In this document: positions 5,379-40,041 of the stretch, piece after piece
Position numbering within the stretch: position 1 is the first letter of the stretch
How the letters are laid out: each line of letters opens with the position of its first letter
Source of the DNA: a virus
Direction: 5' to 3' (one strand)
Length of the DNA: 64,000 bases
IMG/VR virus record: IMGVR_UViG_3300045988_151198
Notes under the pieces: model-generated
Seen by the model: only the letters and a program-made list of their open reading frames with translations
Told to the model about the DNA's origin: nothing
Databases searched by the model: none
Program-made: the position numbers and the translations under genes

Positions 5379-6536
5379 CTACAGGATGAAAGAGACTCTT
5401 TCAAGTCGGCACTGGCTCTTGCCTTTGTAGTCGTCATGAGCCTTGACTTTCGCTTTTTTGATAGTATACGTGCCGCCTCTCTCGACATCGGGAAAAGCGG
5501 AAGTTTTCCACACAAAAGGAATGCCCGCGCTTGACTTCATGATGAAGATATGCTGTGCACCGTACATACCTTCAAACGTGAATATCTTTTCAATGGTGAC
5601 TTCCTCATTAGCAATAACCGTGCCAATGGCGGGAAATTCCACGGTAGATTTTTCTTCCGTCTTTTCCACAACAACCTTTTCCTCTGTCTTTTCGGACTCG
5701 AAAGCCTTGCGGATATCAGCAAGAGCGCCGCGAATCCCCGCCGCGATAAAGCCGAACACACGCTTTTCGCAGCGCTCGGAACTCATAACGCGAAAAACGT
5801 TTTCCTGATATTCTCCCCTGCGATCGGAATTTTTAATAAATTCGATAGCTTTCATAGCTTTTTCGGTATGCTCCGCTGTAACGGTAAAATCGTAATCACG
5901 AGGGAAAGAGCGATAATGTTCGTCAACAAAATCCATGATCTTTGAAGCTGTGCTTCCCGGCGTGTTAGACTTCACAAAACCGAAATCGGAGATCAGCTTA
6001 ACAGCTATGGCGCAGATCTCCACGGTAGCATAATGCGGAGAGCTCGCATAATGTCCATCGTCATCAGAATCCCCAAGGATTCCGGAATTTTCCGCGAAAA
6101 ATTCGAGCGCGCCCGCTTCCTTTCCCAGAAAATCGATAATGCAGGACGTTCCCACCTGAATAATCTTTCCGGCGGCGTCGGAAAGCAGGATGGTCTTAGA
6201 ACGCTTTCTTTTCGTCCCGCAGTGATCACAGATCTTACGGTCGGCAAAAGGAGTCAGATCAACATCTTCCGTAAAAAGAGGGTTACGGAAGATAAGGCCG
6301 CCGCTTGCATGGTCGACCACGGCAGCAAAAGTATAGCCTGAAATCGCGGGATATACGCCATCAATATGGAACTCCACAAAATCCTCATATTCGTAAGTCC
6401 CTTCCGTCCTTACGGAAAATTCACGTTCAACCATGATAGAGAAAGCAGGAGCAAGCCCACGCTTTTCAGCGCGGCGGTTCAGACTTTCGACCTTATCAAC
6501 AATCTTAGCGAACGTAGACTTGTGGCGGATAGGCAT
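5379..6536 (-). CDS. hypothetical protein (about 385 aa); start placed at ATG 6536, which carries the conserved RBS
   Basis: Track ORF is 5379..6569; the ATG at 6536 (MPIRHK...) is preceded by AAGAGGTTATACGTC; no recognisable motifs. Confidence 0.5.
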   Translation of the reverse strand: MPIRHKSTFAKIVDKVESLNRRAEKRGLAPAFSIMVEREFSVRTEGTYEYEDFVEFHIDGVYPAISGYTFAAVVDHASGGLIFRNPLFTEDVDLTPFADRKICDHCGTKRKRSKTILLSDAAGKIIQVGTSCIIDFLGKEAGALEFFAENSGILGDSDDDGHYASSPHYATVEICAIAVKLISDFGFVKSNTPGSTASKIMDFVDEHYRSFPRDYDFTVTAEHTEKAMKAIEFIKNSDRRGEYQENVFRVMSSERCEKRVFGFIAAGIRGALADIRKAFESEKTEEKVVVEKTEEKSTVEFPAIGTVIANEEVTIEKIFTFEGMYGAQHIFIMKSSAGIPFVWKTSAFPDVERGGTYTIKKAKVKAHDDYKGKSQCRLERVSFIL

Positions 6537-6560
6537 GACGTATAACCTCTTATAGTAAAA

Positions 6561-6629
6561 GACATTCATAGATTCCGATAAACCTTTTCCCTTGCCGTTG
6601 AAAAGACTTTATCGGAATCTATGAATGTC
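6561..6629 (-). terminator. perfect 21-bp inverted repeat (GACATTCATAGATTCCGATAA / TTATCGGAATCTATGAATGTC) with a 27-nt loop, followed on the minus strand by a U-run; likely terminator for the upstream leftward gene
   Basis: The two arms at 6561..6581 and 6609..6629 are exact reverse complements; TTTTACTATA follows on the minus strand. Confidence 0.5.
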
Positions 6630-6651
6630 GTCAAGAAATTTTTCTTTGTTT

Positions 6652-6960
6652 TCAAGGTAACAGCTCGCCTAAAATCGCGGCGCTAAGGCGCTTGGCAGAG
6701 TTGACACGGTGCCCCTCAAATTTACTATCTACTAAAGGAACTTCCCGCACTAAGATATAACGTAGAATGGGGATGATGGCGTCTTCCTCTGCCCTGGAAA
6801 GGCTCACCTCGCAAGTTCTTTTCACACTAGAAACATCCTTCACTTTTTCCGCTATAGAAAGTAAAATAGCTCCGCTACCGTCATATCTGAAAATAGCGTT
6901 TAAGTTGGCGACTTCACCTAAAAAATTTCTTTCCTCTGGAGTAAGCTCTACAGACTTCAT
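6652..6960 (-). CDS. hypothetical protein (102 aa)
   Basis: ORF with RBS AAAGGAGATATTTTT-ATG. Confidence 0.4.
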   Translation of the reverse strand: MKSVELTPEERNFLGEVANLNAIFRYDGSGAILLSIAEKVKDVSSVKRTCEVSLSRAEEDAIIPILRYILVREVPLVDSKFEGHRVNSAKRLSAAILGELLP

Positions 6961-6981
6961 AAAAATATCTCCTTTATTTTG

Positions 6982-7380
6982 TTATCCCCTATATTCCATA
7001 CAGACAACGGGACCTTCCTCAACCAATTCAAACCCTTCACTAGCATAAAAAGCAATGAGGGCTTCAAGGTCCATGCCGTCAGAGTCGGGAACCGCCGCAA
7101 GCTTCAAAGGGAGGTGCGGAAATTCCGCCTTTGCATAGGCTATGGCGGCTCTAAGCAACGCCCTTCCATGCCCTTGACGCCGATACTCGGGGATCACATC
7201 AAGGCCGCTTATCAGTACGTAAGGCACTTCATTGTAACCCTCCGGATTTTCCGGAGAACAAGGGACATCAATAAACTCGATATCATGCGACAAGGTACAG
7301 ACGCCGAACGAGGACTTAAAGATAATGCCCACACGCTTGTCTACGGTGATAGTGATCTGACTCATAATAAATTCCTCCAT
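6982..7380 (-). CDS. GNAT-family N-acetyltransferase
   Basis: Motif RRQGHGRALLRAAIAYAK matches the acetyl-CoA-binding motif A of GNAT enzymes; size is consistent with the family. Confidence 0.65.
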   Translation of the reverse strand: MEEFIMSQITITVDKRVGIIFKSSFGVCTLSHDIEFIDVPCSPENPEGYNEVPYVLISGLDVIPEYRRQGHGRALLRAAIAYAKAEFPHLPLKLAAVPDSDGMDLEALIAFYASEGFELVEEGPVVCMEYRG

Positions 7381-7397
7381 ACGATTCGTTTAAAGAG

Positions 7398-7426
7398 ACT
7401 CTACGCAACTCCTAAATCACTGTCAA
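7398..7426 (-). promoter_or_regulatory. sigma70-like early promoter TTGACAG-N17-TAGAGT on the minus strand
   Basis: Minus strand reads TTGACAgtgatttaggagttgcgTAGAGT upstream of the GNAT gene. Confidence 0.55.
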
Positions 7427-7570
7427 CAACTTTTTTTACTCAATCGGGAGGCGCGAGCAATATATAAGGTATTGCAAGTATCATGCCATAATATCAGTAT
7501 AGATATTCTACGGTGGTTCCGATGGTCCTAAGTCAATGATACCTAATGACATCTATTACACATGATGACA

Positions 7571-7625
7571 CTCCTTTGACTGCTGTTGACGGTCGTTGAC
7601 GCTTGCTGACGGCTGTTTACGACCG
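7571..7625. repeat. five TTGAC-like elements phased exactly 10 bp apart (TTTGAC, TGTTGAC, GTTGAC, GCTGAC, GTTTAC) in the divergent region upstream of terS
   Basis: Direct reading of ctttgactgctgttgacggtcgttgacgcttgctgacggctgtttac. Confidence 0.7.
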
Positions 7626-7890
7626 TACGCGGGGATTTTCAACGATTGTTCAAGAAATAACTATCAATACAATCAACTACTTACAACTTGGCATAAGTCT
7701 TGCATAGCTTGAGAATGGTTGGGGATTCTCCAATCATTTCAAGTATATGGGAGGGGGTAGTGTTAAAGTGTACCGTATTCCGGTATATAGTACCGTCGTT
7801 GACTCAAAAAAACATTTTTTTCGATTTCTGAGCTTTTATCCGGTTGTAATTATTCATGTAAATTTTTTAAACGAAATTTTAATAAAACTA

Positions 7891-7919
7891 TTGACAAAAA
7901 ATCGTTTATGGATTAAGAT
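7891..7919 (+). promoter_or_regulatory. sigma70-like promoter TTGACA-N17-TAAGAT upstream of terS
   Basis: TTGACA at 7891..7896 and TAAGAT at 7914..7919; RBS AAGGAG at 7942..7947. Confidence 0.5.
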
Positions 7920-7954
7920 TTTTACTAAATTTAATATAAAAAAGGAGAAAAACA

Positions 7955-8425
7955 TTGCGACGCCAAACAAAATCCATCGAAGCGCATAAGCAAGATGGTA
8001 CATACAATTCTACGAAGCATGGAGTGGACGTTCCATTGGCGGAAGGACCGCTGAGGAAAATCAATTGGGACAAGATGTCCTCGGAAGACATTTATACTAC
8101 GATTGCTGATGTTATCGCGCAGAAGGGACTTGACCATGCTGAATACTCTCTGGCTTTGGAACTCTTAGTTTATGCGGTGAATAGGATGCTTAAACTCCGC
8201 AGGGATCTGAAATCCCAAGGCGGAGAGACATATATTACCCCGACAGGTATTCGGAAAAACAATCCTACAGCGAAACTTGTTATGGAAGCAGAGAAGCAAG
8301 TTGATACGCTCCTGCAAAGGTTTGGGCTTACTCCGGATTCTCGTAGTCGAGTAGCTAGGAAGAAGGGAGAACTTAATCTAGGGAGTGAAGATTCTTTCGG
8401 ATCTCCGGAAGGTTTCTTCAATTAA
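7955..8425 (+). CDS. terS: phage terminase small subunit, P27 family (TTG start)
   Basis: Family hallmark motif ...QRFGLTPDSRSRV... plus the upstream pattern (G..K.NP); RBS AAGGAG precedes the TTG. Confidence 0.7.
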   Translation: MRRQTKSIEAHKQDGTYNSTKHGVDVPLAEGPLRKINWDKMSSEDIYTTIADVIAQKGLDHAEYSLALELLVYAVNRMLKLRRDLKSQGGETYITPTGIRKNNPTAKLVMEAEKQVDTLLQRFGLTPDSRSRVARKKGELNLGSEDSFGSPEGFFN

Positions 8426-8457
8426 ACCAATAATTTAAAAATATTTAAAAAAAGTAG

Positions 8458-8485
8458 TTGACAAGTATAAAAATCTAAGTATAAT
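8458..8485 (+). promoter_or_regulatory. near-consensus promoter TTGACA-N16-TATAAT driving the first tRNA cluster
   Basis: TTGACA at 8458..8463 and TATAAT at 8480..8485. Confidence 0.65.
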
Positions 8486-8499
8486 CTATTTCAGTAAAA

Positions 8500-8569
8500 G
8501 GTGTTGTTGGCTACATGGGAAAAGCTACGCTTTCGAGCGTTACTGTAGGTTCGACTCCTATGGGCACCA
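8500..8569 (+). tRNA. tRNA-like element with canonical T-arm (GGTTCGACTCC) and 3' ACCA, but a 6-nt anticodon loop in every fold tried and an imperfect acceptor stem
   Basis: T-stem GTAGG/CCTAT; the acceptor GGTGTTG/GGGCACC pairs 6 of 7 using two G-U wobbles; the anticodon arm ACGC-TTTCGA-GCGT gives a 6-nt loop. Confidence 0.35.
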
Positions 8570-8658
8570 TCAAAAAGATAGACTCGTATTTCAATTGATG
8601 TAAGGTAAGTCTGTAACCAAGAAAATGCTGGCTTAAATCATATCGAGTCTATCATTAT

Positions 8659-8735
8659 GCGACCGTAACTCAATTGGCAAGAGTAGCCGACTTTTAATTG
8701 GCAAGTTATGGGTTCAAGCCCCATCGGTCGCACCA
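8659..8735 (+). tRNA. tRNA-Lys (anticodon TTT)
   Basis: Hand-folded cloverleaf: acceptor GCGACCG/CGGTCGC, D-stem ACTC/GAGT, anticodon stem GCCGA/TTGGC with loop CTTTTAA, T-arm ATGGG-TTCAAGC-CCCAT, discriminator A, encoded CCA. Confidence 0.7.
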
Positions 8736-8761
8736 TAAATCTGTAAAAAGGAGATTCATAG

Positions 8762-9028
8762 ATGGACACGACCACTGATTTCTTTGAAAGAATGTTTTCT
8801 TGTGAAGGTTGGGATCAGCTTGACACTTTCGACTTTGTGTTTTATGATTGCACTTTGAACAGGGATATTGGAGATTTTAAGGAAGGAGACAAGATTGACG
8901 CTATTACTGTCCTTTTTAGTGTCAGCAAGATCGAATTTGCGACGTTCATTGAGAACAAGGATGGTATGGATGAAGAAAAAATCATTTATTCCGCAACGCT
9001 TGTGCCCTTTATGGTCGAACGACCTTAA
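8762..9028 (+). CDS. hypothetical protein (88 aa) embedded between the two tRNA clusters
   Basis: ORF with RBS AAAGGAGATTCATAG-ATG. Confidence 0.45.
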   Translation: MDTTTDFFERMFSCEGWDQLDTFDFVFYDCTLNRDIGDFKEGDKIDAITVLFSVSKIEFATFIENKDGMDEEKIIYSATLVPFMVERP

Positions 9029-9046
9029 AAACTATTAAAAAAGTTC

Positions 9047-9075
9047 TTGACATTCTGATTTAAGTTTAGTATAAG
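9047..9075 (+). promoter_or_regulatory. promoter TTGACA-N17-TATAAG driving the second tRNA cluster
   Basis: TTGACA at 9047..9052 and TATAAG at 9070..9075. Confidence 0.6.
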
Positions 9076-9113
9076 GTTTCCATCAATTCATTCATACGTT
9101 TGCTCCTCGAATC

Positions 9114-9147
9114 GGGAGACGCAATTTCCTCCTTTATTGCGTCTCCC
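9114..9147 (+). other. perfect 12-bp stem-loop (GGGAGACGCAAT / ATTGCGTCTCCC) in the leader of the second tRNA cluster; no immediate U-run, so read as an RNA structural or processing element rather than a terminator
   Basis: Exact inverted repeat with a 10-nt loop, just downstream of the 9047 promoter. Confidence 0.45.
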
Positions 9148-9262
9148 ACAACAAAAATTTTTAACAGAAGAATCGGCTTATAATCGGGAAGTTATATAGA
9201 ATTTTATAGTACCGTGGGGCACACGGGAACTGAGAGTAATCTCTACGCTTGTCGACATCAGG

Positions 9263-9339
9263 TAATGATGGTTGAAGCAAGAATCCCATACATTTATACA
9301 TGGGGAGTGCCAAAGGTTCGAGTCCTATCGACTCTACCA
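9263..9339 (+). tRNA. tRNA-like element (T-arm GGTTCGAGTCC, 3' ACCA); the 5' acceptor strand could not be paired by hand
   Basis: T-loop TTCGAGT, discriminator A and CCA at 9337..9339; no complementary 5' acceptor was found within 70 to 110 nt upstream. Confidence 0.3.
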
Positions 9340-9343
9340 TCAT

Positions 9344-9422
9344 GCTCTCGTGGTGCAACTGGCAGACACATCGGTTTTAAGCACCGTACAAGTGATGGGT
9401 TCGACTCCCTCCGAGAGTACCA
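9344..9422 (+). tRNA. tRNA with anticodon TAA (would read Leu UUA/UUG), but it lacks the long variable arm expected of a Leu tRNA, and the T-stem has mismatches
   Basis: Acceptor GCTCTCG/CGAGAGT (first pair G-U), anticodon stem CGGT/ACCG with loop TTTAAGC, T-loop TTCGACT, CCA at 9420..9422. Confidence 0.5.
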
Positions 9423-9432
9423 AAAAAAATAT

Positions 9433-9508
9433 TGTGGGATAGTTCAGTTTGGTAGAACACTTGACGTTAATCAAGGTGTTGGCGGTTCAATCCCGTCTCC
9501 CACAGCCA
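9433..9508 (+). tRNA. tRNA with good acceptor, D and T arms, but the anticodon loop folds as 6 nt (CGTTAA) or 8 nt (ACGTTAAT); anticodon identity unresolved (GTT or TTA/TAA)
   Basis: Acceptor TGTGGGA/TCCCACA, D-stem GTTC/GAAC, T-arm GGCGG-TTCAATC-CCGTC, anticodon stem CTTGA/TCAAG, CCA at 9506..9508. Confidence 0.5.
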
Positions 9509-9523
9509 GAAGAATTAAAAACG

Positions 9524-9613
9524 GGACAGGTGCCAGAGTCAGGCTTATTGGGGCGGTCTTGAAAACCGTTGGCGCAGGAGCGTCCGTGGGTTCGAATCCT
9601 ACCTTGTCCGCCA
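9524..9613 (+). tRNA. tRNA-Ser (anticodon TGA), type II with a long variable arm
   Basis: Acceptor GGACAGG/CTTGTCC, anticodon stem GCGGT/ACCGT with loop CTTGAAA, variable arm GGCGC-AGGA-GCGTC, T-arm GTGGG-TTCGAAT-CCTAC, CCA at 9611..9613. Confidence 0.7.
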
Positions 9614-10164
9614 AATTTATCGATATTTATACGGGATACGAAGTAGAGCAGACAAGTGCGTTGAAAAACTGACGGATATGTCGAAAGACATAGACTAATA
9701 GTAGCTGCGACGCAATAGACCTTCTATGACGATAGATAGAACTAGCATATCAAACTCGTGGTTACGATGCTTCGTTACTTGCAAGACCCTATTAAATATC
9801 GATAATATTTCGATGGATTGAGTTGATCTACGTATCTCCCTGTATGGATCGAGAACGCAAGATCCTCTTCATCGATAAAAGCCAAACGTGATCTTGAAAG
9901 GAACGATTCGACCTCCTTGCGTAGCCTATCGAGGTCCGTTTGGCCCCACAAATCTCCGGGTGTAGTTTAAGAGCTTAGTCAGGATCTAGATGAGAAAACC
10001 GCATACTAGTAGGCACTCATTGAAAGAAGTGATATTGATTCTGACGGGCCACAGTTAAAACCTCTGCGCGAAGTAAACAGCTTCGAAGAAAATGCGAATG
10101 CTTGATCAGCATTTTAGGTGCAATTCCCGCCACTCGGACACAATTAAAAAAAAGGAATGGTGTA

Positions 10165-10383
10165 ATGGAAAAGTTTAAATCCTCAGCAATTTATTTTATT
10201 GATTCTATGTTTGCGCTCTGGGTTATTTGTAGTGCGCTCAGATGGGACTGGATAAATCTATTAGATCCGAACGAAGTTATGTATCTTATCTCGTTTATTG
10301 GCATAAGCGCGTTTATGACGGCTAGAAACGCCAATAAGGACAAAAAAAAGACTCCGCACCGAAATCTCTGTAAATCTAAATGA
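10165..10383 (+). CDS. small two-TM membrane protein (hypothetical)
   Basis: ATG at 10165 with RBS AAAAAGGAATGGTGTA; two hydrophobic segments; the track ORF 10102..10383 has no RBS at its first Met. Confidence 0.4.
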   Translation: MEKFKSSAIYFIDSMFALWVICSALRWDWINLLDPNEVMYLISFIGISAFMTARNANKDKKKTPHRNLCKSK

Positions 10384-10482
10384 AAAATAATAAATTTCGT
10401 GGTTCCATAAGTCATTCCCCGTAATCTTTACAGATGGATAAAGGTACTGCGAATACCTCCATCGCAATAAAAACCACGAAAG

Positions 10483-10526
10483 CGAAGGCCCCTAAAACAA
10501 TTCAATATGTTTTAGGGGCCTTCTTT
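10483..10526. terminator. bidirectional rho-independent terminator (15-bp stem AAGGCCCCTAAAACA / TGTTTTAGGGGCCTT, with T/A runs on both sides)
   Basis: Sits between the convergent ORFs ending at 10383 (+) and 10529 (-). Confidence 0.7.
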
Positions 10527-15213: not shown

Positions 15214-15851
15214 GATTCTTCCTCCATTTTTTGTTCGACCGCAATTCTTGCATGTTTAAGGCGACATTGCACGCATTTATATCTTAATTTGCCCACCTCT
15301 GTACAACCCTCACCGATTATTTCACATGGCAGCGAATCCAGTTCACCAGCTTTTGCAAGCCAAATAGCTGCCCTAGCCTCAAATTCGGCTACATCTTGGC
15401 TAAATCCCGATAAAGTATACCGTTTTGGATTCATAGGATAATTTTGACCAACGCATTGTGCATAATAACAGAAGCTATAAATACACTCGGTCTTTTTATC
15501 CCTTCCACACCTAAAACACACGTCTTTTCGGTTTTCCAACCACTGTTTTTCGCTATCTTTAAGTTGAAATCTATAGCTTTCTTTGTTGTATAGGTCTTTA
15601 ATCGGAAATTTAGCGTCCCAATCAGCTTCGGCGGCTTCCTTGGTTTTGAAAAGATCCGACTTTTTATTACAGAAAACGCTATTGCAAGTCACATGCCACA
15701 TTTCATATGGGCCTACAAAAGAGTCAATTAGTACCTTCTTGGCAGTAGCGTCATTAGCACAGTGCGGACATTTTCTTGTGTTCATATGCACCTCATTTTC
15801 ACTACACACTCGTAAGCCTGTACTTTTCATACAGGACGAAGGCTTCCCCAC
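15210..15851 (-). CDS. tandem zinc-ribbon protein with two Lar-like (restriction alleviation) repeats
   Basis: CPHCAN...CNSVFCNKK...EAAEADWDAKF and CFRCGRD...ARAAIWLAKA resemble the Lar-family pattern CPFCG...C..C...eAi.aWN. Confidence 0.4.
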   Translation of the reverse strand: MGKPSSCMKSTGLRVCSENEVHMNTRKCPHCANDATAKKVLIDSFVGPYEMWHVTCNSVFCNKKSDLFKTKEAAEADWDAKFPIKDLYNKESYRFQLKDSEKQWLENRKDVCFRCGRDKKTECIYSFCYYAQCVGQNYPMNPKRYTLSGFSQDVAEFEARAAIWLAKAGELDSLPCEIIGEGCTEVGKLRYKCVQCRLKHARIAVEQKMEEES

Positions 15852-17786: not shown

Positions 17787-20405
17787 TTAATCTGTGCTCA
17801 ATTCGTCAAACTCGTTTTTTGGGATATTCAGATATTCACAGAACAAACCAATGCAATCGTCCAATTTCGGAAAGGCGTGTACTTTCATTCTTTCATTCCT
17901 GTTTGCAATTTGAAGAACCCTGAAAGTGTGATCTCCTAATCCAAAAATACGTTTTGTTTCGATACTGAATTTTTTTAAAGATACAATATCGTATGAGGAT
18001 GCTCTACTTCTAACCATTTCTTGTTTAAACTTTTCATGCGCCTTTCCAAGTGACAAATAGCTAGGCCAAGATGGGCAGTCTGAGTCCTCAAAAAGCTTTA
18101 CTGACTTTTCATCTTCGATTTCTTCCCTCGGGAATGCTCCCTCGGAAAGAATATCATACCACCATTTCTGCACACTACTCAAAGAAAGGAGTTTCTGTTC
18201 CATGAGAGCCTTCGTCTGGGGAGCCTCTCGGATATTCACTCCGCTAAAGTCATAATGTTTCAGATAGACGTAAAGGGCCTCGTCACCGCCATTCTCAAAT
18301 TCCTCATTAAGGTCTTTGAAGTATCCTTGAGTATCCTGTTTATGCTTCGAGGACACGTCGAGAACAAAGAATCTGCGGGCGTCCTTACCTGCGGGGATAA
18401 CCCAGTCCTCGTTAGAAGACATGATGAACCGGGAGCAGGAATGCACAGAGTATGATTCGAAGCCTTTCCTTTCGATCACCTGAGTACGTTCCGTGATCTG
18501 TGATTTAAGAATGCTTTCGTCCTGTTTGCTTCCGGCCCAGACAGCTTCGTCGAGATAGATAAGGACTTTCCCTTCGGTGGCTCCGTTGAAGTTCGAGAAG
18601 TAGTGTTGCCTATTCGCTACAGACAAGCCGTGCTTGCCCAACATGCTCATGAACGGAGATACGAAAGAGCCTTTACCAGTACCTTCCTCACCACGAAGCA
18701 CAACGGCTACGCCGGGCTTATCCTCCGGCTTTTGAATCATGTGCGCAAGCCAAGCCCACATATACCGTTGGTGATCTTCATTACCATCACAGATTACTTC
18801 ATTGACGTGGCTCCTAAACAACTTGCAGCGTTCAGTGGCCTCGGCAATTCCCATCTCCGAGTTTGCATATTTAAACCCGCGCCAGAGATTGTAGTACCCC
18901 TTGGGAGCCCCCTGCGGAGCAAATTCCACCCCACGATATTGACGGCGGTTCTTGCTTTCCATCCATGCTTTGAAGAGGGGTTTTTGCTTCACGTTCCCTT
19001 TTGCATCAAGAAACTCGAATGCGGGAAGGTTTGCGGAGAACTCTTCGGCGGCCCTAGGAGTAAGGAATTTGGATTCCCCGTCAGGATCTTCGTAAATGAT
19101 TGCCGATTTCCCTCCGATAAAAGTAAAAGCGAAAAGACCATTCATTTTCTTGATCAGAGGATGCACGTAGTCCTGATCGGAATCTTCTTCCTTTTCGGCG
19201 TTTTTAACAATATCGGATGATGAATCCTCCGAATTTCCGAAAGGTGATTCTCCGAAAGGATTATCCTCTACATTTGTCTGGGATTCCTTGTTCTCGGTTT
19301 TAGGTTCTTCCGTTCCATAGTCTTTCATAATCATCTCAAACATGCGTTCGGCATAGATTGGGCAGCTTCCACAGACCCTCGAACGCTCTTTTCCCAGAAT
19401 CGTAATCATCGCTCCGCAACCGAAATCGCACGGGGATTTCTCGTCAGTATCCCACACGCTTTCAAGATGGTGCGTTCTGTCCATAGCCGAAGTATAACCT
19501 TGAGACTCTTCGAAATTTTCGAGAAAGTCGACTACAAGAGGATGGTTAATGGCTTCCGACTTTGTGAATCCCGCAGATCTGAGAGCGGGAACGATGGCGG
19601 AGAAGCACATCTGATTGAAGGAATAGTCTCCAGTTTTCTTTGTAAGTCCAAGAATCGCCTTTAGGCAAGGAACGATTTCCTTGTCCTTAATATTAAGCGG
19701 GGCTTGCTTCCTTTCCGAGCGGGCTTTGATGGCTCCTACGACATTCGCTTCACATCTACGGAAAAGATCGCTCAGATAATCAATTCTAGCGGGTTTCTTT
19801 GCTTGTTCGTCAGGCTGAGGCGATAGGGCTTTGCTTTGAAAATACTCAATAGTATTATTGATAAGCTCATCCGCGCTAATACGGATTTTGTATCTGCCAT
19901 TGGAACGAAGCCTATTCGCAATTCGGAACATCTTTCCACGTTTCATAGCGAACATGGAATAGTCGAGAGTCTTATAGCCTTCCTCGCTAGGGAAAAGTTC
20001 AAGGCACACTTCTTTGTAAATCCAAGGAAGAACGCGATGTCCATTTTCCGCGCCAAAAGCCTCCGCAGGAACGACGATATGAAAACCCTTCTGCCCCGAA
20101 TAATAGATTCTAAGAGACTCCGAATCCAATCCCAAAAGAACCAATTTATTCAAAGCATTTACTGTATCGATACGGCTCTCCTCAGCATCTTTTGAGTCGA
20201 AATCGAGAGTCAAATCCCCATATCGTACTACAGCCAAATTAAGGATATCCTTATTTTCATCCTTATAATTGGGCTCCGTTTCAAAAGACATTGACGTAGA
20301 GAACATAGCGATATTCGGCACTTTGTCTATTTTACAAATCTTCCAAGCGCTTTCCCTTTCTTCAACTTTCCAATATACAAAGCGTTGCATATATGCCACC
20401 CTCAT
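17787..20405 (-). CDS. bifunctional DNA primase-helicase: AEP/Prim-Pol-like N-terminus, D5/P4-type SF3 helicase C-terminus
   Basis: AEP motif YYSGQKGFHIVVP near the N-terminus; Walker A VVLRGEEGTGKGSF in the C-terminal half; 872 aa; first start uncertain (possibly the Met 15 nt downstream). Confidence 0.8.
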   Translation of the reverse strand: MRVAYMQRFVYWKVEERESAWKICKIDKVPNIAMFSTSMSFETEPNYKDENKDILNLAVVRYGDLTLDFDSKDAEESRIDTVNALNKLVLLGLDSESLRIYYSGQKGFHIVVPAEAFGAENGHRVLPWIYKEVCLELFPSEEGYKTLDYSMFAMKRGKMFRIANRLRSNGRYKIRISADELINNTIEYFQSKALSPQPDEQAKKPARIDYLSDLFRRCEANVVGAIKARSERKQAPLNIKDKEIVPCLKAILGLTKKTGDYSFNQMCFSAIVPALRSAGFTKSEAINHPLVVDFLENFEESQGYTSAMDRTHHLESVWDTDEKSPCDFGCGAMITILGKERSRVCGSCPIYAERMFEMIMKDYGTEEPKTENKESQTNVEDNPFGESPFGNSEDSSSDIVKNAEKEEDSDQDYVHPLIKKMNGLFAFTFIGGKSAIIYEDPDGESKFLTPRAAEEFSANLPAFEFLDAKGNVKQKPLFKAWMESKNRRQYRGVEFAPQGAPKGYYNLWRGFKYANSEMGIAEATERCKLFRSHVNEVICDGNEDHQRYMWAWLAHMIQKPEDKPGVAVVLRGEEGTGKGSFVSPFMSMLGKHGLSVANRQHYFSNFNGATEGKVLIYLDEAVWAGSKQDESILKSQITERTQVIERKGFESYSVHSCSRFIMSSNEDWVIPAGKDARRFFVLDVSSKHKQDTQGYFKDLNEEFENGGDEALYVYLKHYDFSGVNIREAPQTKALMEQKLLSLSSVQKWWYDILSEGAFPREEIEDEKSVKLFEDSDCPSWPSYLSLGKAHEKFKQEMVRSRASSYDIVSLKKFSIETKRIFGLGDHTFRVLQIANRNERMKVHAFPKLDDCIGLFCEYLNIPKNEFDELSTD

Positions 20406-28525: not shown

Positions 28526-28828
28526 ATGTCAGAGAATGAAAAGACCAACAATGTTTGCCGCCGCGACTTGACGAATGCCGTCATGCGTATTACCGGATTC
28601 CGCCGTGCTGATATCGAAAAGGTTATCAATGCGTATACTGAGGTGATTTATGCCAATCTTAAAGCAGGGCGTAGCGTGAAGCTGCATCGGCTGTGTACTT
28701 TCAAGGTCGTAGACTTGGCCCCCCGTGAGTTCCGTTCAAACCTTACCGGAGAAATTGTTCGTAAGCCCGCACGAAAACGTGTTCGTGTGAAGCTTTCCTC
28801 CCGACTCCAGATTAATGAGAAGAACTAA
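28526..28828 (+). CDS. HU/IHF-family DNA-binding protein
   Basis: About 100 aa; the arm region FKVVDLAPREFRSNLTGEIVRKPARKRVRVK matches the HU beta-arm pattern (R.G.NP.TGE...A...V.FK). Confidence 0.65.
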   Translation: MSENEKTNNVCRRDLTNAVMRITGFRRADIEKVINAYTEVIYANLKAGRSVKLHRLCTFKVVDLAPREFRSNLTGEIVRKPARKRVRVKLSSRLQINEKN

Positions 28829-32681: not shown

Positions 32682-33422
32682 ATGGACAAATACCATAAAA
32701 GACCTTTTGATTCACGATGGGAGAGTAGGGAAGATATTACTAAAAATAATCGGGTTAAATTAACGTATAAACCTAGAAGTGGAGAAAAGTTTGGGAGATT
32801 AACTATTATTGAATCCGATTGGGGTCAGTATCGTGCATACGCAAAAGTTCGATGTGAATGTGGGTCTGAATTTAAAGTTCCAGTAGCGCAAATTCGGATG
32901 GGAGAGCATCTTTCGTGCCGTAGATGCGCACAAAAAAATAGAAAATATAAAAATAAAATTCTTAAAAAACTAAATGAACTTATCCCTGATTCAAAATTAC
33001 GATCACTTTGGACACAGCGTTACCGCAATATTATGGAAAAATGCTATAACACTAGTTGTAAACAATATCATCAATGTGGAGGCAGAGGAATCGAAATATA
33101 CGAAGAATGGATGGAGGATAGACTTAAATTTTTAGAATATATTAAAACATTACAAAACTGGGAAAACACCGCATATGATTTTTGTAGAATAAATGTTAAT
33201 GGTAATTATGAACCGGGAAATGTTAGATTAGTCACCAGAAAAGAAAATATCAATAATAGGAGAGTATCTATAAAAATTAAATATGATGGTTGTAAATACA
33301 CTATACGAGAATTTAAAGAAAAATTTACTCCAGAATGGACTAGGTCATCTATTTTATATCATACAAAAAAAGGTCACACACCTGAATATATGATCTATAG
33401 ATATAATATCAAACATAAATAG
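32682..33422 (+). CDS. HNH endonuclease (homing-endonuclease-like, HNH_3 type with an N-terminal zinc ribbon)
   Basis: N-terminal GRLTIIE...VRCECGSEFKV...LSCRRCA; C-terminal INVNGNYEPGNVRLVTRKENINN matches the HNH_3 motif. Confidence 0.6.
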   Translation: MDKYHKRPFDSRWESREDITKNNRVKLTYKPRSGEKFGRLTIIESDWGQYRAYAKVRCECGSEFKVPVAQIRMGEHLSCRRCAQKNRKYKNKILKKLNELIPDSKLRSLWTQRYRNIMEKCYNTSCKQYHQCGGRGIEIYEEWMEDRLKFLEYIKTLQNWENTAYDFCRINVNGNYEPGNVRLVTRKENINNRRVSIKIKYDGCKYTIREFKEKFTPEWTRSSILYHTKKGHTPEYMIYRYNIKHK

Positions 33423-33510
33423 CCTAAAGAATATGTTGACATTCGCTTCCGATTGATGAATACTCCATTTGTCGGAAGCAAACATCTTTAGAAAGAAGGA
33501 GTGTAAGAGA

Positions 33511-34693
33511 ATGATTGAGGTAAAAGGATCAGTAAGTACAGCTAAGGTTTTCACAGACTATGTGGATCCGACCGCGTTATCTCAGATTATTGAATTATGT
33601 AATCAGGAGTTCACCGAAGGAAGTAAAATCCGTATTATGCCTGATGTACATGCTGGTGCTGGATGCGTTATTGGAACGACGATGACCATTGAAAATAAGA
33701 AAATCGTTCCTAATCTTGTCGGTGTTGATATTGGCTGTGGGTTGACATCGGCAAGATATGGCGGTTACGAATTGGGCTTCCTGCAAGAATATGAAAAAGA
33801 AGAAGGTGTGTGGGTAAATGATTTTTTAAAAGAATTTGATAGGTTGATTCGGGCAAATGTTCCTATGGGTACGAATGTTTGCGAAAAGCTAATGTACCAT
33901 CCATTTAGGACACGAATAAAAGAATTGATTTGCGCTAAAAATGTAAATATTGAAAGGGGGTATCACAGTATTGGAACCCTTGGTGGTGGAAATCATTTTA
34001 TTGAAGTTGGATGTGATATTTTCTCTGAAAAGAAAGGGCACATAGGAGAATTGCGTAGAGATTTTTATATCACGGTTCATTCCGGATCTCGTGGTATCGG
34101 AAAAGAAGTAGCTACTTATTATCAAAAAATTGCGGAAGAACAATGCAAAAATGTGCCAAAGCACTTAGCATATTTATCTGGGAACGCATTTGAAGACTAT
34201 ATTCACGATATGCAGATTATGCAGGAATACGCTTCTATTAATCGTGATTGTATAATCGAAAAAAATAGCTATGAATTGCGCTTTAATCGCTCCCGCTCCG
34301 GATAGCTACGAAGAAACAATTCATAATTATGTCGAGATTGGAGAAAAGATTATTCTTCGCAAAGGTGCAATCTCCGCGAAAAAAGATGAAAAAGTCATGA
34401 TTCCATTAAACATGCGGGATGGTATCATAATCGGAAAAGGTAAGGGCCTTGAGGATTGGAATGAATCCGCGCCTCATGGTGCCGGGCGCGTACTTAGTCG
34501 AGGACAAGCTAAACGGCAATTGTCCGTAGATATTTTTAAGGATCAAATGGAAGGAATCTATTCAACCTGCATAAACGAATCGACGTTGGATGAAAGCCCT
34601 TCCGCATACAAGAATTCTGATGAGATTTGTAATAATCTCGATTCCGTAGAAATTGTCGGAAGGACTAAGCCTATCTATAATATTAAAGCATAA
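33511..34693 (+). pseudogene. rtcB: RtcB-family RNA ligase, disrupted by a frameshift: N-terminal part 33511..34305, C-terminal part continues in the +1 frame from about 34256 to 34693
   Basis: N-terminal motifs MPDVHAGAGCVIG, VGVDIGCGL, GGGNHFIE, ASINRDCI; the C-terminal part carries HNYVE...RKGA...SAPHGAGR; the two frames overlap at 34256..34305. Confidence 0.65.
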
Positions 34694-39490: not shown

Positions 39491-40041
39491 AGGATACTAA
39501 AGTTATCAATCTTTATGGAGGCCCCGGATGCGGGAAAAGTACCGGAGCCGCCCATATATTCTCGGAGCTAAAGCTGTGTGGGATTTCTTGCGAGCTTGTA
39601 ACTGAGTTTGCTAAAGATTGTGTATGGGACAATAGCGTCGACCTACTGAATGATCAATTGCTCGTTACTGCGCAGCAATGGCATCGAGTAGATAGGCTTC
39701 TTGGAAAAGTTGATTATGTTATTACGGACTCGCCTATCCTGATTGGACTGGCATATATCGCTCCTAGGTCTTATTACTCCGCGCCTTTGACAAATCTAAT
39801 TTTAAACCTTCATCAGTCTGCAAAAACAATAGATGTTCTTGTAAAAAGGGTTAAAAAATATTCCTCGACAGGTAGAATTCAAACGGAAACGGAAGCAAAA
39901 GAGAAAGATTCTATCATCAAAGAGATTTTTGATAAGTATACTAACTTGTCTTCTCAATTCTATATTGTTGGAGATGAGGATGGCTATAATGCTGTAATCG
40001 ACCTAATTCTTTTTAACCATAAAGGAAAGAGAAATAATTAA
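39481..40041 (+). CDS. P-loop NTPase, putative (deoxy)nucleoside monophosphate kinase
   Basis: Walker A LYGGPGCGKST in a 186-aa protein located within the nucleotide-metabolism cluster. Confidence 0.45.
   Translation: MYMKDTKVINLYGGPGCGKSTGAAHIFSELKLCGISCELVTEFAKDCVWDNSVDLLNDQLLVTAQQWHRVDRLLGKVDYVITDSPILIGLAYIAPRSYYSAPLTNLILNLHQSAKTIDVLVKRVKKYSSTGRIQTETEAKEKDSIIKEIFDKYTNLSSQFYIVGDEDGYNAVIDLILFNHKGKRNN

Follow-up and report, generated by a model that had tools for sequence, protein, structure and literature searches.

A helically phased repeat array beside the probable cohesive-end site of an uncultured human-gut phage

The locus and the chromosome ends

We analysed a 64,000-nucleotide stretch of viral DNA (IMG/VR record IMGVR_UViG_3300045988_151198, hereafter the window), in which an array of short, helically phased direct repeats lies between a leftward block of early genes and a rightward gene for the small terminase (terS). 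A preliminary description of the window had reported five TTGAC-like elements in 10-bp steps immediately upstream of terS, and had proposed them as a candidate pac site or, alternatively, as a regulator array. The divergent, non-coding location adjoining terS was borne out. The gene on the right (7955-8425, plus strand, 156 aa, TTG start) matches Pfam family PF05119 Terminase_4 at 5.3e-13 and phrog_83 at 4e-12, and the first leftward gene (6982-7380, minus strand) is assigned by Pfam to the GNAT acetyltransferases and is absent in some relatives that retain the array module.

The array occupies 7531-7628 on the plus strand and holds nine cores of the form T(G/T)A(C/T), the first starting at 7537 and the last ending at 7620, arranged in direct 10-bp units of which one is 9 bp and one 11 bp long. 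The right-hand five cores, TGAC at 7577, 7587, 7597 and 7607 and TTAC at 7617, are spaced by exactly 10 bp. These are the elements already described, and both they and their helical phasing are real, as confirmed by Tandem Repeats Finder (7576-7621, period 10, 4.6 copies, 72% matches, score 43) and by a repeat search that returned four TGAC copies at spacings of 10, 10 and 10. The count of five, by comparison, falls short of the whole array, which continues to the left with TGAT at 7537, TGAC at 7547, TTAC at 7556 and TGAC at 7566 (spacings 10, 9, 10 and then 11). The left half is AT-rich, with units of the ACATGATGAC type (xxATGAC), the right half is GC-rich, with units of the GGTCGTTGAC type (xGTTGAC), and a degenerate terminal unit, GACCGTAC, follows the last core. 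When phased runs of at least four identical 4-mers were sought at any spacing of 7-13 bp, the array was the sole case in the window, where first-order Markov simulations gave 0.007 expected runs at period 10 and 0.09 over periods 7-13; TGAC-N6-TGAC-N6-TGAC with at most one mismatch gave three overlapping matches in the window, all in the array, versus 0.17 expected. A coding repeat is excluded by the 10-bp period, and an RNA element is unlikely, as an Rfam scan of 6500-10500 returned tRNAs as its only RNA matches. Tandem sigma-70 promoters were also rejected: TTGAC is a -35 box, yet no -10 box lies 16-18 bp from any unit.

Contig termini to the right of the array fall at recurrent positions. 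Contigs L002, L003 and L005 (IMG/VR, two samples) start at 7803 (CTCAAAAAAACATTT...), and others end at 7793 (L026, L030), 7790 (L036) and 7789 (L028), of which L030, L036 and L028 are whole contigs from other gut assemblies. The 90,083-bp contig IMGVR_UViG_3300045988_141352 starts at 7803 and ends in ...GGTATATAGTAC at 7793, omitting only the 9 nt of CGTCGTTGA (7794-7802). Contigs L027, L031, L035 and the window itself read through this point; the genome measures about 90.1 kb, and the window spans its joined ends. Assembly artefact was rejected as the source of the termini, given that the shared repeat of 9-12 nt is far below assembler k-mers and that identical ends occur in separate assemblies. 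The simplest reading is a cos site with a 9-nt 3' end, since end repair trims a 3' overhang away, while fill-in synthesis would have left a 5' overhang duplicated. The bottom strand would be nicked after 7793 and the top strand after 7802, within a putative cleavage region at 7790-7803 (plus strand; GTAC/CGTCGTTGA/C), to leave CGTCGTTGA as the cohesive end. Judged from the contig termini, a cos site with a 9-nt overhang is probable, and we infer the 3' polarity from the same data.

The pac proposal did not survive this comparison. Headful packaging predicts permuted, redundant molecules with no unique ends, whereas the termini lie at 7803 in three contigs and at 7789-7793 in four, across several assemblies, and it was cos-type fixed ends, as these termini indirectly indicate, that the preliminary description had itself set against a pac site. 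The large terminase (TerL) and the sequence before the right end speak against it as well. No TerL gene was found in the window; a relative encodes a TerL of 569 aa (L173:19158-20867, minus strand) that matches PF03354 and PF20441, both of which are also matched by HK97 gp2. The late-gene block has this TerL gene at its far end, and on the linear map roughly 65 kb separate it from terS, which stands alone beside cos. In HK97 and D3, 3'-overhang cos sites have been established by experiment. A G-run followed by TCAAA is found about 40-45 nt before the right end in HK97 (GGGCAGGGGGGGGGATCAAATC, 39668-39690), in D3 (GGGGTGGGGCGGGTCAAAACC, right end), in the window (TGGGAGGGGGTAGTGTTAAAG) and in its relatives (GGGGGTAGGGTCAAAG). 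In the window this element, TGGGAGGGGGTAGTGTTAAAGT, lies at 7748-7769 (plus strand), about 45 nt from the end; relatives conserve it, its core TATAGTACCGTCGTTGA is kept even where TerS is only 86% identical, and it may represent a cos element common to HK97-type terminases. Inside the left end, an A7-CA-T7 tract (7806-7821, plus strand) is invariant in all relatives, as are the roughly 150 bp that follow it, and is largely kept in the lineage with 86% TerS identity; by analogy with HK97 it is a candidate small-terminase site.

With the ends so placed, the array lies about 173-266 bp in from the right end of the chromosome and is separated from terS by the putative cos nick, the cut falling about 175 bp to the right of the array. 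The wording "immediately upstream" of terS accordingly needs correction: 334 bp separate the last core from the start of terS, and the inferred cleavage site (7793/7803) lies inside that gap. The cut region carries a copy of part of a repeat unit. Its 9-mer GTCGTTGAC (7795-7803) is identical to part of the array unit at 7591-7600 (repeat family D10), a match for which about 3e-4 is the estimated chance expectation at that place, and ACCGTCGTTGAC (7792-7803) agrees with ACGGTCGTTGAC of the array (7589-7600) at 11 of 12 positions.

The array among related phages

Conservation in related phages had been suggested as a check on the array, and it was found: in a comparison set of 17 related gut-metagenome sequences, the array lies between the same flanks in all. 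These relatives come from human-gut metagenomes, and the phage has no close relative in INPHARED, in which neither the region nor TerS had a match (megablast, tblastn) and the portal is less than 40% identical to that of any deposited phage. A word-index protein search with TerS returned only two clusters, at 99% and 86% identity. The contig of the 86% lineage, L042, starts too near cos to include the array region, and no longer contigs of this lineage were found by exact-pattern search.

Copy number varies widely, from about five (L039) through seven (L001), nine (the window) and 11-13 (most relatives) to 20 (L008), and units are gained or lost in whole multiples of 10 bp. Contig L031 is near-identical to the window and carries three additional units through repeated TGCTGTTGAC and GGTCGTTGAC units. 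Among the 32 distinct units, the four core positions hold 1.4-2.0 bits and the six spacer positions 0.1-0.6 bits, figures that for the core are partly built in, as unit segmentation demanded at least three of four core matches; nearly every 10-bp step of every array satisfies that requirement. Across the same units the spacers are about 50% divergent and the cores nearly invariant. Such a contrast is unlike the even decay of a neutral minisatellite and favours recognition of T(G/T)AC by a protein at every helical turn.

Left of about 7450, gene content differs among relatives, giving a mosaic left flank. In L030 and L039 the segment 5379-7380 is missing or replaced, and the block from array to cos is retained. 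That segment encodes a 396-aa phrog_2319 protein, a 102-aa open reading frame and the GNAT protein, and has the look of a mosaic early-gene region.

Taken as sequence comparison, these data point to an array under selection for a protein that would read one helix face, with little constraint on repeat number. The array is likely, in our view, to have been selected for protein binding rather than to serve as a pac site.

Candidate roles of the array

As to what the array does, we favour an accessory role in packaging, as an accessory terminase site or a packaging scaffold, because the cos cut region carries the repeat-unit copy; we put the probability of this role at roughly 0.35. The array belongs to the conserved cos module, which makes such a role possible. 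It would be part of an extended cos region in a cohesive-end phage of the HK97 type and would offer a scaffold for cooperative binding, with nine (elsewhere about 5-20) weak 4-bp T(G/T)AC sites on one strand. An oligomeric or filament-forming protein would line up along one DNA face, one site per helical turn. The translocating terminase would meet the array just before the downstream cos, and the terminase, or a partner such as a phage protein of the HU/IHF family, would load there. The loaded protein could then help to bend or present the cleavage site, about 17-18 helical turns (~175 bp) away, or could slow the motor before the cut. Both terminase binding to the array and its effect on packaging are conjectural steps of this scheme.

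The HK97-type machinery, the fixed ends and the retention of the array-to-cos block beside a mosaic left flank speak for this role, as do possible bending factors and an HK97 precedent. An IHF-consensus match, AATCAACTACTTA (WATCAANNNNTTR), lies at 7671-7683 (plus strand) between the array and cos in a region that is invariant in relatives, a weak lead in that it is one of five such matches in the whole window, and the phage encodes an HU/IHF-family DNA-bending protein at 28526-28828 (PF00216, 3.8e-17). Upstream of its own right end, at about -110 to -60, HK97 has four ATCA copies that share one 10-bp phase (shuffle P = 0.004), and in that phage cos-bound TerS is a roadblock for the motor (PMC9410871).

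Several observations weigh against an accessory packaging role. HK97 TerS uses a single 15-bp A-tract site, +15 to +29 downstream of the cut, with the DNA threaded through its channel (PMC11331095), and the invariant A7/T7 tract at 7806-7821 occupies a comparable place, so that the array is probably not the canonical TerS site. Relative to the cut, the array and lambda cosB lie on opposite sides, and D3 has no phased repeats before its right end. A copy number that ranges from about 5 to 20 means that there is hardly any constraint on repeat number. In the divergent relative L039, every unit of the GTTGAC type has been lost, and L001, L030 and L039 lack the cos-like TCGTTGAC array unit type; the L039 contig ends short of the cut, and its CGTCGTTGA is assumed from L042. 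At least 120 viral contigs, with the array in varied settings, also have five TGAC copies at 10-bp spacing, and the pattern alone is no pointer to packaging. The window TerS has no detectable similarity to HK97 gp1 (BLASTP E = 1.1), which itself matches no Pfam family, phmmer against PDB sequences returned noise only, and a weak AlphaFold2 model (pLDDT 64) found nothing below E = 0.8 in a Foldseek search of the PDB.

The array could instead be an enhancer (upstream activating sequence) or an operator common to two divergent promoters, a possibility that is the main rival and, in our view, only slightly less probable. The observation behind it is a pair of sigma-54-type -24/-12 elements around the array, TGGCATGATACTTGCA at 7473-7488 (minus strand), which points left to the early-left genes, and TGGCATAAGTCTTGCA at 7689-7704 (plus strand), which points right to cos and terS. 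Each matches the consensus TGGCAY-N5-TTGCW exactly, and together they form inverted repeat I1. The window holds four exact matches versus 0.12 expected, a number reached in none of 100 shuffles, and all four (the other two at 5610-5625 and 15683-15698, both minus strand) point in the direction of local transcription. GG and TTGCA do not vary in 15 relatives, in contrast to the spacer, and both elements are intact in L039 despite its decayed array. By sequence match, the elements lie 49 and 69 bp from the nearest core, with far cores up to about 150 bp away. The leftward gene of L030 lacks a sigma-70-like -35 box and retains the sigma-54-like element. The IHF-consensus site falls between the array and the rightward element, and classical sigma-54 promoters have an IHF site between enhancer repeats and promoter. 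The host is probably Gram-negative, because the single-domain M15 endolysin finds its best matches in Proteobacteria phages, and phased direct repeats are the usual sites of regulators of the Cox/Apl/Xis and OmpR/PhoB types.

Against regulation of this kind, both flanking genes already have predicted sigma-70-like promoters, TTGACA-17-TAAGAT before terS (7891-7919, plus strand, invariant in relatives) and TTGACA-17-TAGAGT before the leftward GNAT gene (7398-7426, minus strand), and the array overlaps no predicted promoter, which renders simple repression unlikely. No small Xis/Cox-like regulator was seen among the neighbouring and small open reading frames covered by a non-exhaustive scan. The other two exact sigma-54 matches lie inside open reading frames with nothing repeat-like upstream.

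In its specific form, the proposal holds that two RpoN promoters face outward and that a host AAA+ activator bound to the TGAC repeats drives the early genes to the left and, where the DNA is circular or concatemeric, also transcription across cos into terS. A host physiological signal would thereby switch on the end-proximal genes, reading across cos into terS after circularisation, and repeat number would act as a fast-evolving gain control. That a virulent-looking gut phage carries such a divergent sigma-54 pair at its chromosome end, with the array as enhancer and a borrowed host enhancer-binding protein, seems to us improbable. Six-frame translations of about 88 of 90 kb contain no GAFTGA, GESGTGK or RpoN box, which leaves room for an activator from the host; sigma-54 activator sites are usually 2-3 dyads, as opposed to the 5-20 direct repeats here; and no report of a sigma-54-dependent phage switch, or of sigma-54 use by a phage, was found in full-text searches of the literature.

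Iterons of a replication origin are a still poorer fit. The 872-aa primase-helicase encoded at 17787-20405, which is D5/P4-alpha-like, would bind the repeats and open nearby AT-rich DNA. Short direct repeats that are helically phased and variable in number are typical of iteron origins, and the superfamily 3 helicases P4 alpha and SaPI Rep bind short repeats of 6-8 bp. The phage encodes this DUF5906/VapE-like helicase and its own DNA polymerase, the stretch 7803-7950 is 80% AT, and in L067, an unrelated contig, a TGAC array stands just ahead of a replisome-organiser gene. However, 10 kb lie between the array and the initiator gene, the AT-rich stretch is about 175 bp off and beyond the cos cut, a 4-bp core at a 10-bp period is short for iterons, GC skew tracks gene orientation only, and the resemblance to the cos cut site is left without reason.

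The weakest candidates, a plasmid-prophage centromere of the parC or tubC type or a functionless, slippage-prone minisatellite, can draw on the variable-number, 10-12-bp phased direct repeats of parC (R1, pSK41) and tubC (pBtoxis), on a genome of about 90 kb, a size typical of phage-plasmids, and on a copy number as hypervariable as that of neutral tandem repeats, but are very improbable given that no ParA/TubZ-type motif (KGGxGK[ST], GGG[TS]G[ST]G) was found in a search not aimed at ParM, that Pfam and PHROG scans gave no integrase or partition gene, and that, against neutrality, nearly invariant cores stand among spacers about 50% divergent over 32 units in an array that no relative lacks, not even the lineage whose left flank differs.

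Wider occurrence and comparison with known systems

Five TGAC copies at exactly 10-bp spacing were found in at least 120 IMG/VR contigs (L044-L161), where well under one would be expected by chance according to our estimate. Many of these arrays have free spacers and a YG-TGAC consensus, and high-GC contigs have the consensus YG-TGAC-N4. The array lies upstream of a replisome organiser in L067 and near a Nu1-like gene in L059; in about 11 related contigs (among them L113, L055, L057, L085, L102, L112 and L117) an array of TGACATTCAG TGACAAACGG ... lies at most about 20 bp upstream of the portal gene, beside an HNH-like open reading frame. In 12 of 22 whole-contig loci the array is at most 1 kb from a contig end, a figure to be read with the fact that repeats also break assemblies. 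One common context for the arrays was rejected, the neighbours being mixed among the matches listed, and the phased-repeat pattern alone does not identify a function.

The remainder of the window carries lysis genes, the primase-helicase, DNA polymerase I, NrdD/G and an HK97-like portal (phrog_12), protease (phrog_80) and capsid (phrog_10). A host scan of the genome contigs gave one 20-mer chance match in a Kaistella metagenome-assembled genome and no other similarity. Four tRNA genes follow terS. At 9433-9508, ARAGORN calls a tRNA but gives its anticodon as two bases ('tt') only. A perfect sigma-70 consensus promoter at 8458-8485 is closely followed by a fifth tRNA-like match from Rfam, at 8500-8569, whose score of 24.4 bits is below threshold. 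Beside this tRNA island, L001, L005 and L006 carry a 1.85-kb insert between window positions 8493 and 8657 (L005:694-2544) that encodes a 511-aa DUF2828/DUF7788 protein. Farther right, an HNH-like open reading frame (32682-33422, phrog_374) lies just upstream of a truncated or split-looking RtcB (33469-34693, 278 aa, partial Pfam match). The HNH-like frame may be a homing endonuclease, or the RtcB gene may be interrupted, and the insert and the RtcB fragments may together form a phage RNA-repair module.

Short repeats in helical phase are already known from the vicinity of packaging sites, operators, origins and centromeres. New here are the position of the array upstream of an HK97-type cos, a 4-bp core at a strict 10-bp period, extreme copy-number variation among near-identical genomes, and the flanking sigma-54-like pair. 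For an uncultured human-gut phage lineage of about 90 kb, the packaging mode (cos, 9-nt 3' overhang, HK97-type) and the exact ends can be assigned from public contigs. In HK97-type phages the characterised site is a single small-terminase site downstream of the cut, and the upstream array is a candidate "arrival" signal in the role of cosQ; no function is assigned to the HK97 sequence upstream of cos in PMC9410871 or PMC11331095. Were the array a sigma-54 enhancer, it would represent an unreported route by which a phage couples its programme to host signalling. In either case, the natural series of about 5-20 repeats in otherwise near-identical genomes is a ready titration experiment.

Set beside known systems, the array shares features with several. 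An iteron origin would have its repeats beside an AT-rich unwinding element and the initiator gene, whereas here the AT-rich DNA lies about 175 bp away beyond cos, with the helicase-primase gene at 17787-20405. Sigma-54 promoters (glnAp2, Pu, nifH) are alike in the -24/-12 consensus, repeats about 50-150 bp upstream, an IHF-consensus site between and a divergent layout, and unlike in that no phage activator gene was found in the translated frames, the repeats are direct and not dyads, and copy number is hypervariable. P2 Cox, 186 Apl and lambda Xis bind five to nine direct repeats with a period of about 10.5 bp in a divergent control region, forming a cooperative winged-helix filament. The array resembles these sites in having at least 4-6 direct repeats at about one helical turn, whereas Cox/Apl/Xis arrays overlap the promoters they control and come with an identifiable small regulator gene, neither of which is seen here.

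Among packaging sites, T7 SRL and SRR likewise have short conserved cores and variable spacers a few hundred bp from the chromosome end, and the IMG/VR match L063 (TGACCTAAAG in four copies) resembles the T7 unit; T7, however, has direct terminal repeats rather than cos, and its SRL/SRR spacing is irregular at 12-15 bp. In the P1 pac hexamers and SPP1 pacL/pacR, clusters of short repeats bound by a small terminase or pacase flank the packaging cut, with phased bending in SPP1, but packaging there is headful, with imprecise cuts and permuted ends, whereas this phage has fixed ends and is cut outside the array. Lambda cosB consists of R3-I1-R2-R1, sites for gpNu1 plus IHF; its three 16-bp R sites have no 10-bp phasing, only one short element makes up cosQ, and the overhangs of lambda are 5'. 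The textbook likenesses are repeats beside the nick, a possible IHF site between repeats and nick, and a cosQ-like upstream position that the motor would meet first. The difference is that cosB lies between cosN and terS, and the present array on the other side of the inferred nick from terS.

The closest counterparts are HK97 and D3. The overhang of D3 is 9 nt. The ends are fixed in these phages as here, and the inferred 9-nt 3' overhang compares with the 10-nt 3' overhang of HK97 (PMC9410871, PMC11331095). The phage departs from this type in a TerL gene ~65 kb from terS and in a TerS not detectably similar to HK97 gp1; HK97 and D3 have an HNH gene at the right end, where here a GNAT gene adjoins the end and the only HNH-like frame is that at 32682-33422, and neither has a long hypervariable array. 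The likenesses are TerL of Pfam families PF03354 and PF20441, terS directly inside the left end, a G-run and TCAAA about 45 nt before the right end, an A/T tract just inside the left end, HK97-like portal, protease and capsid, and, in HK97, a short set of four ATCA copies in 10-bp phase upstream of the end.

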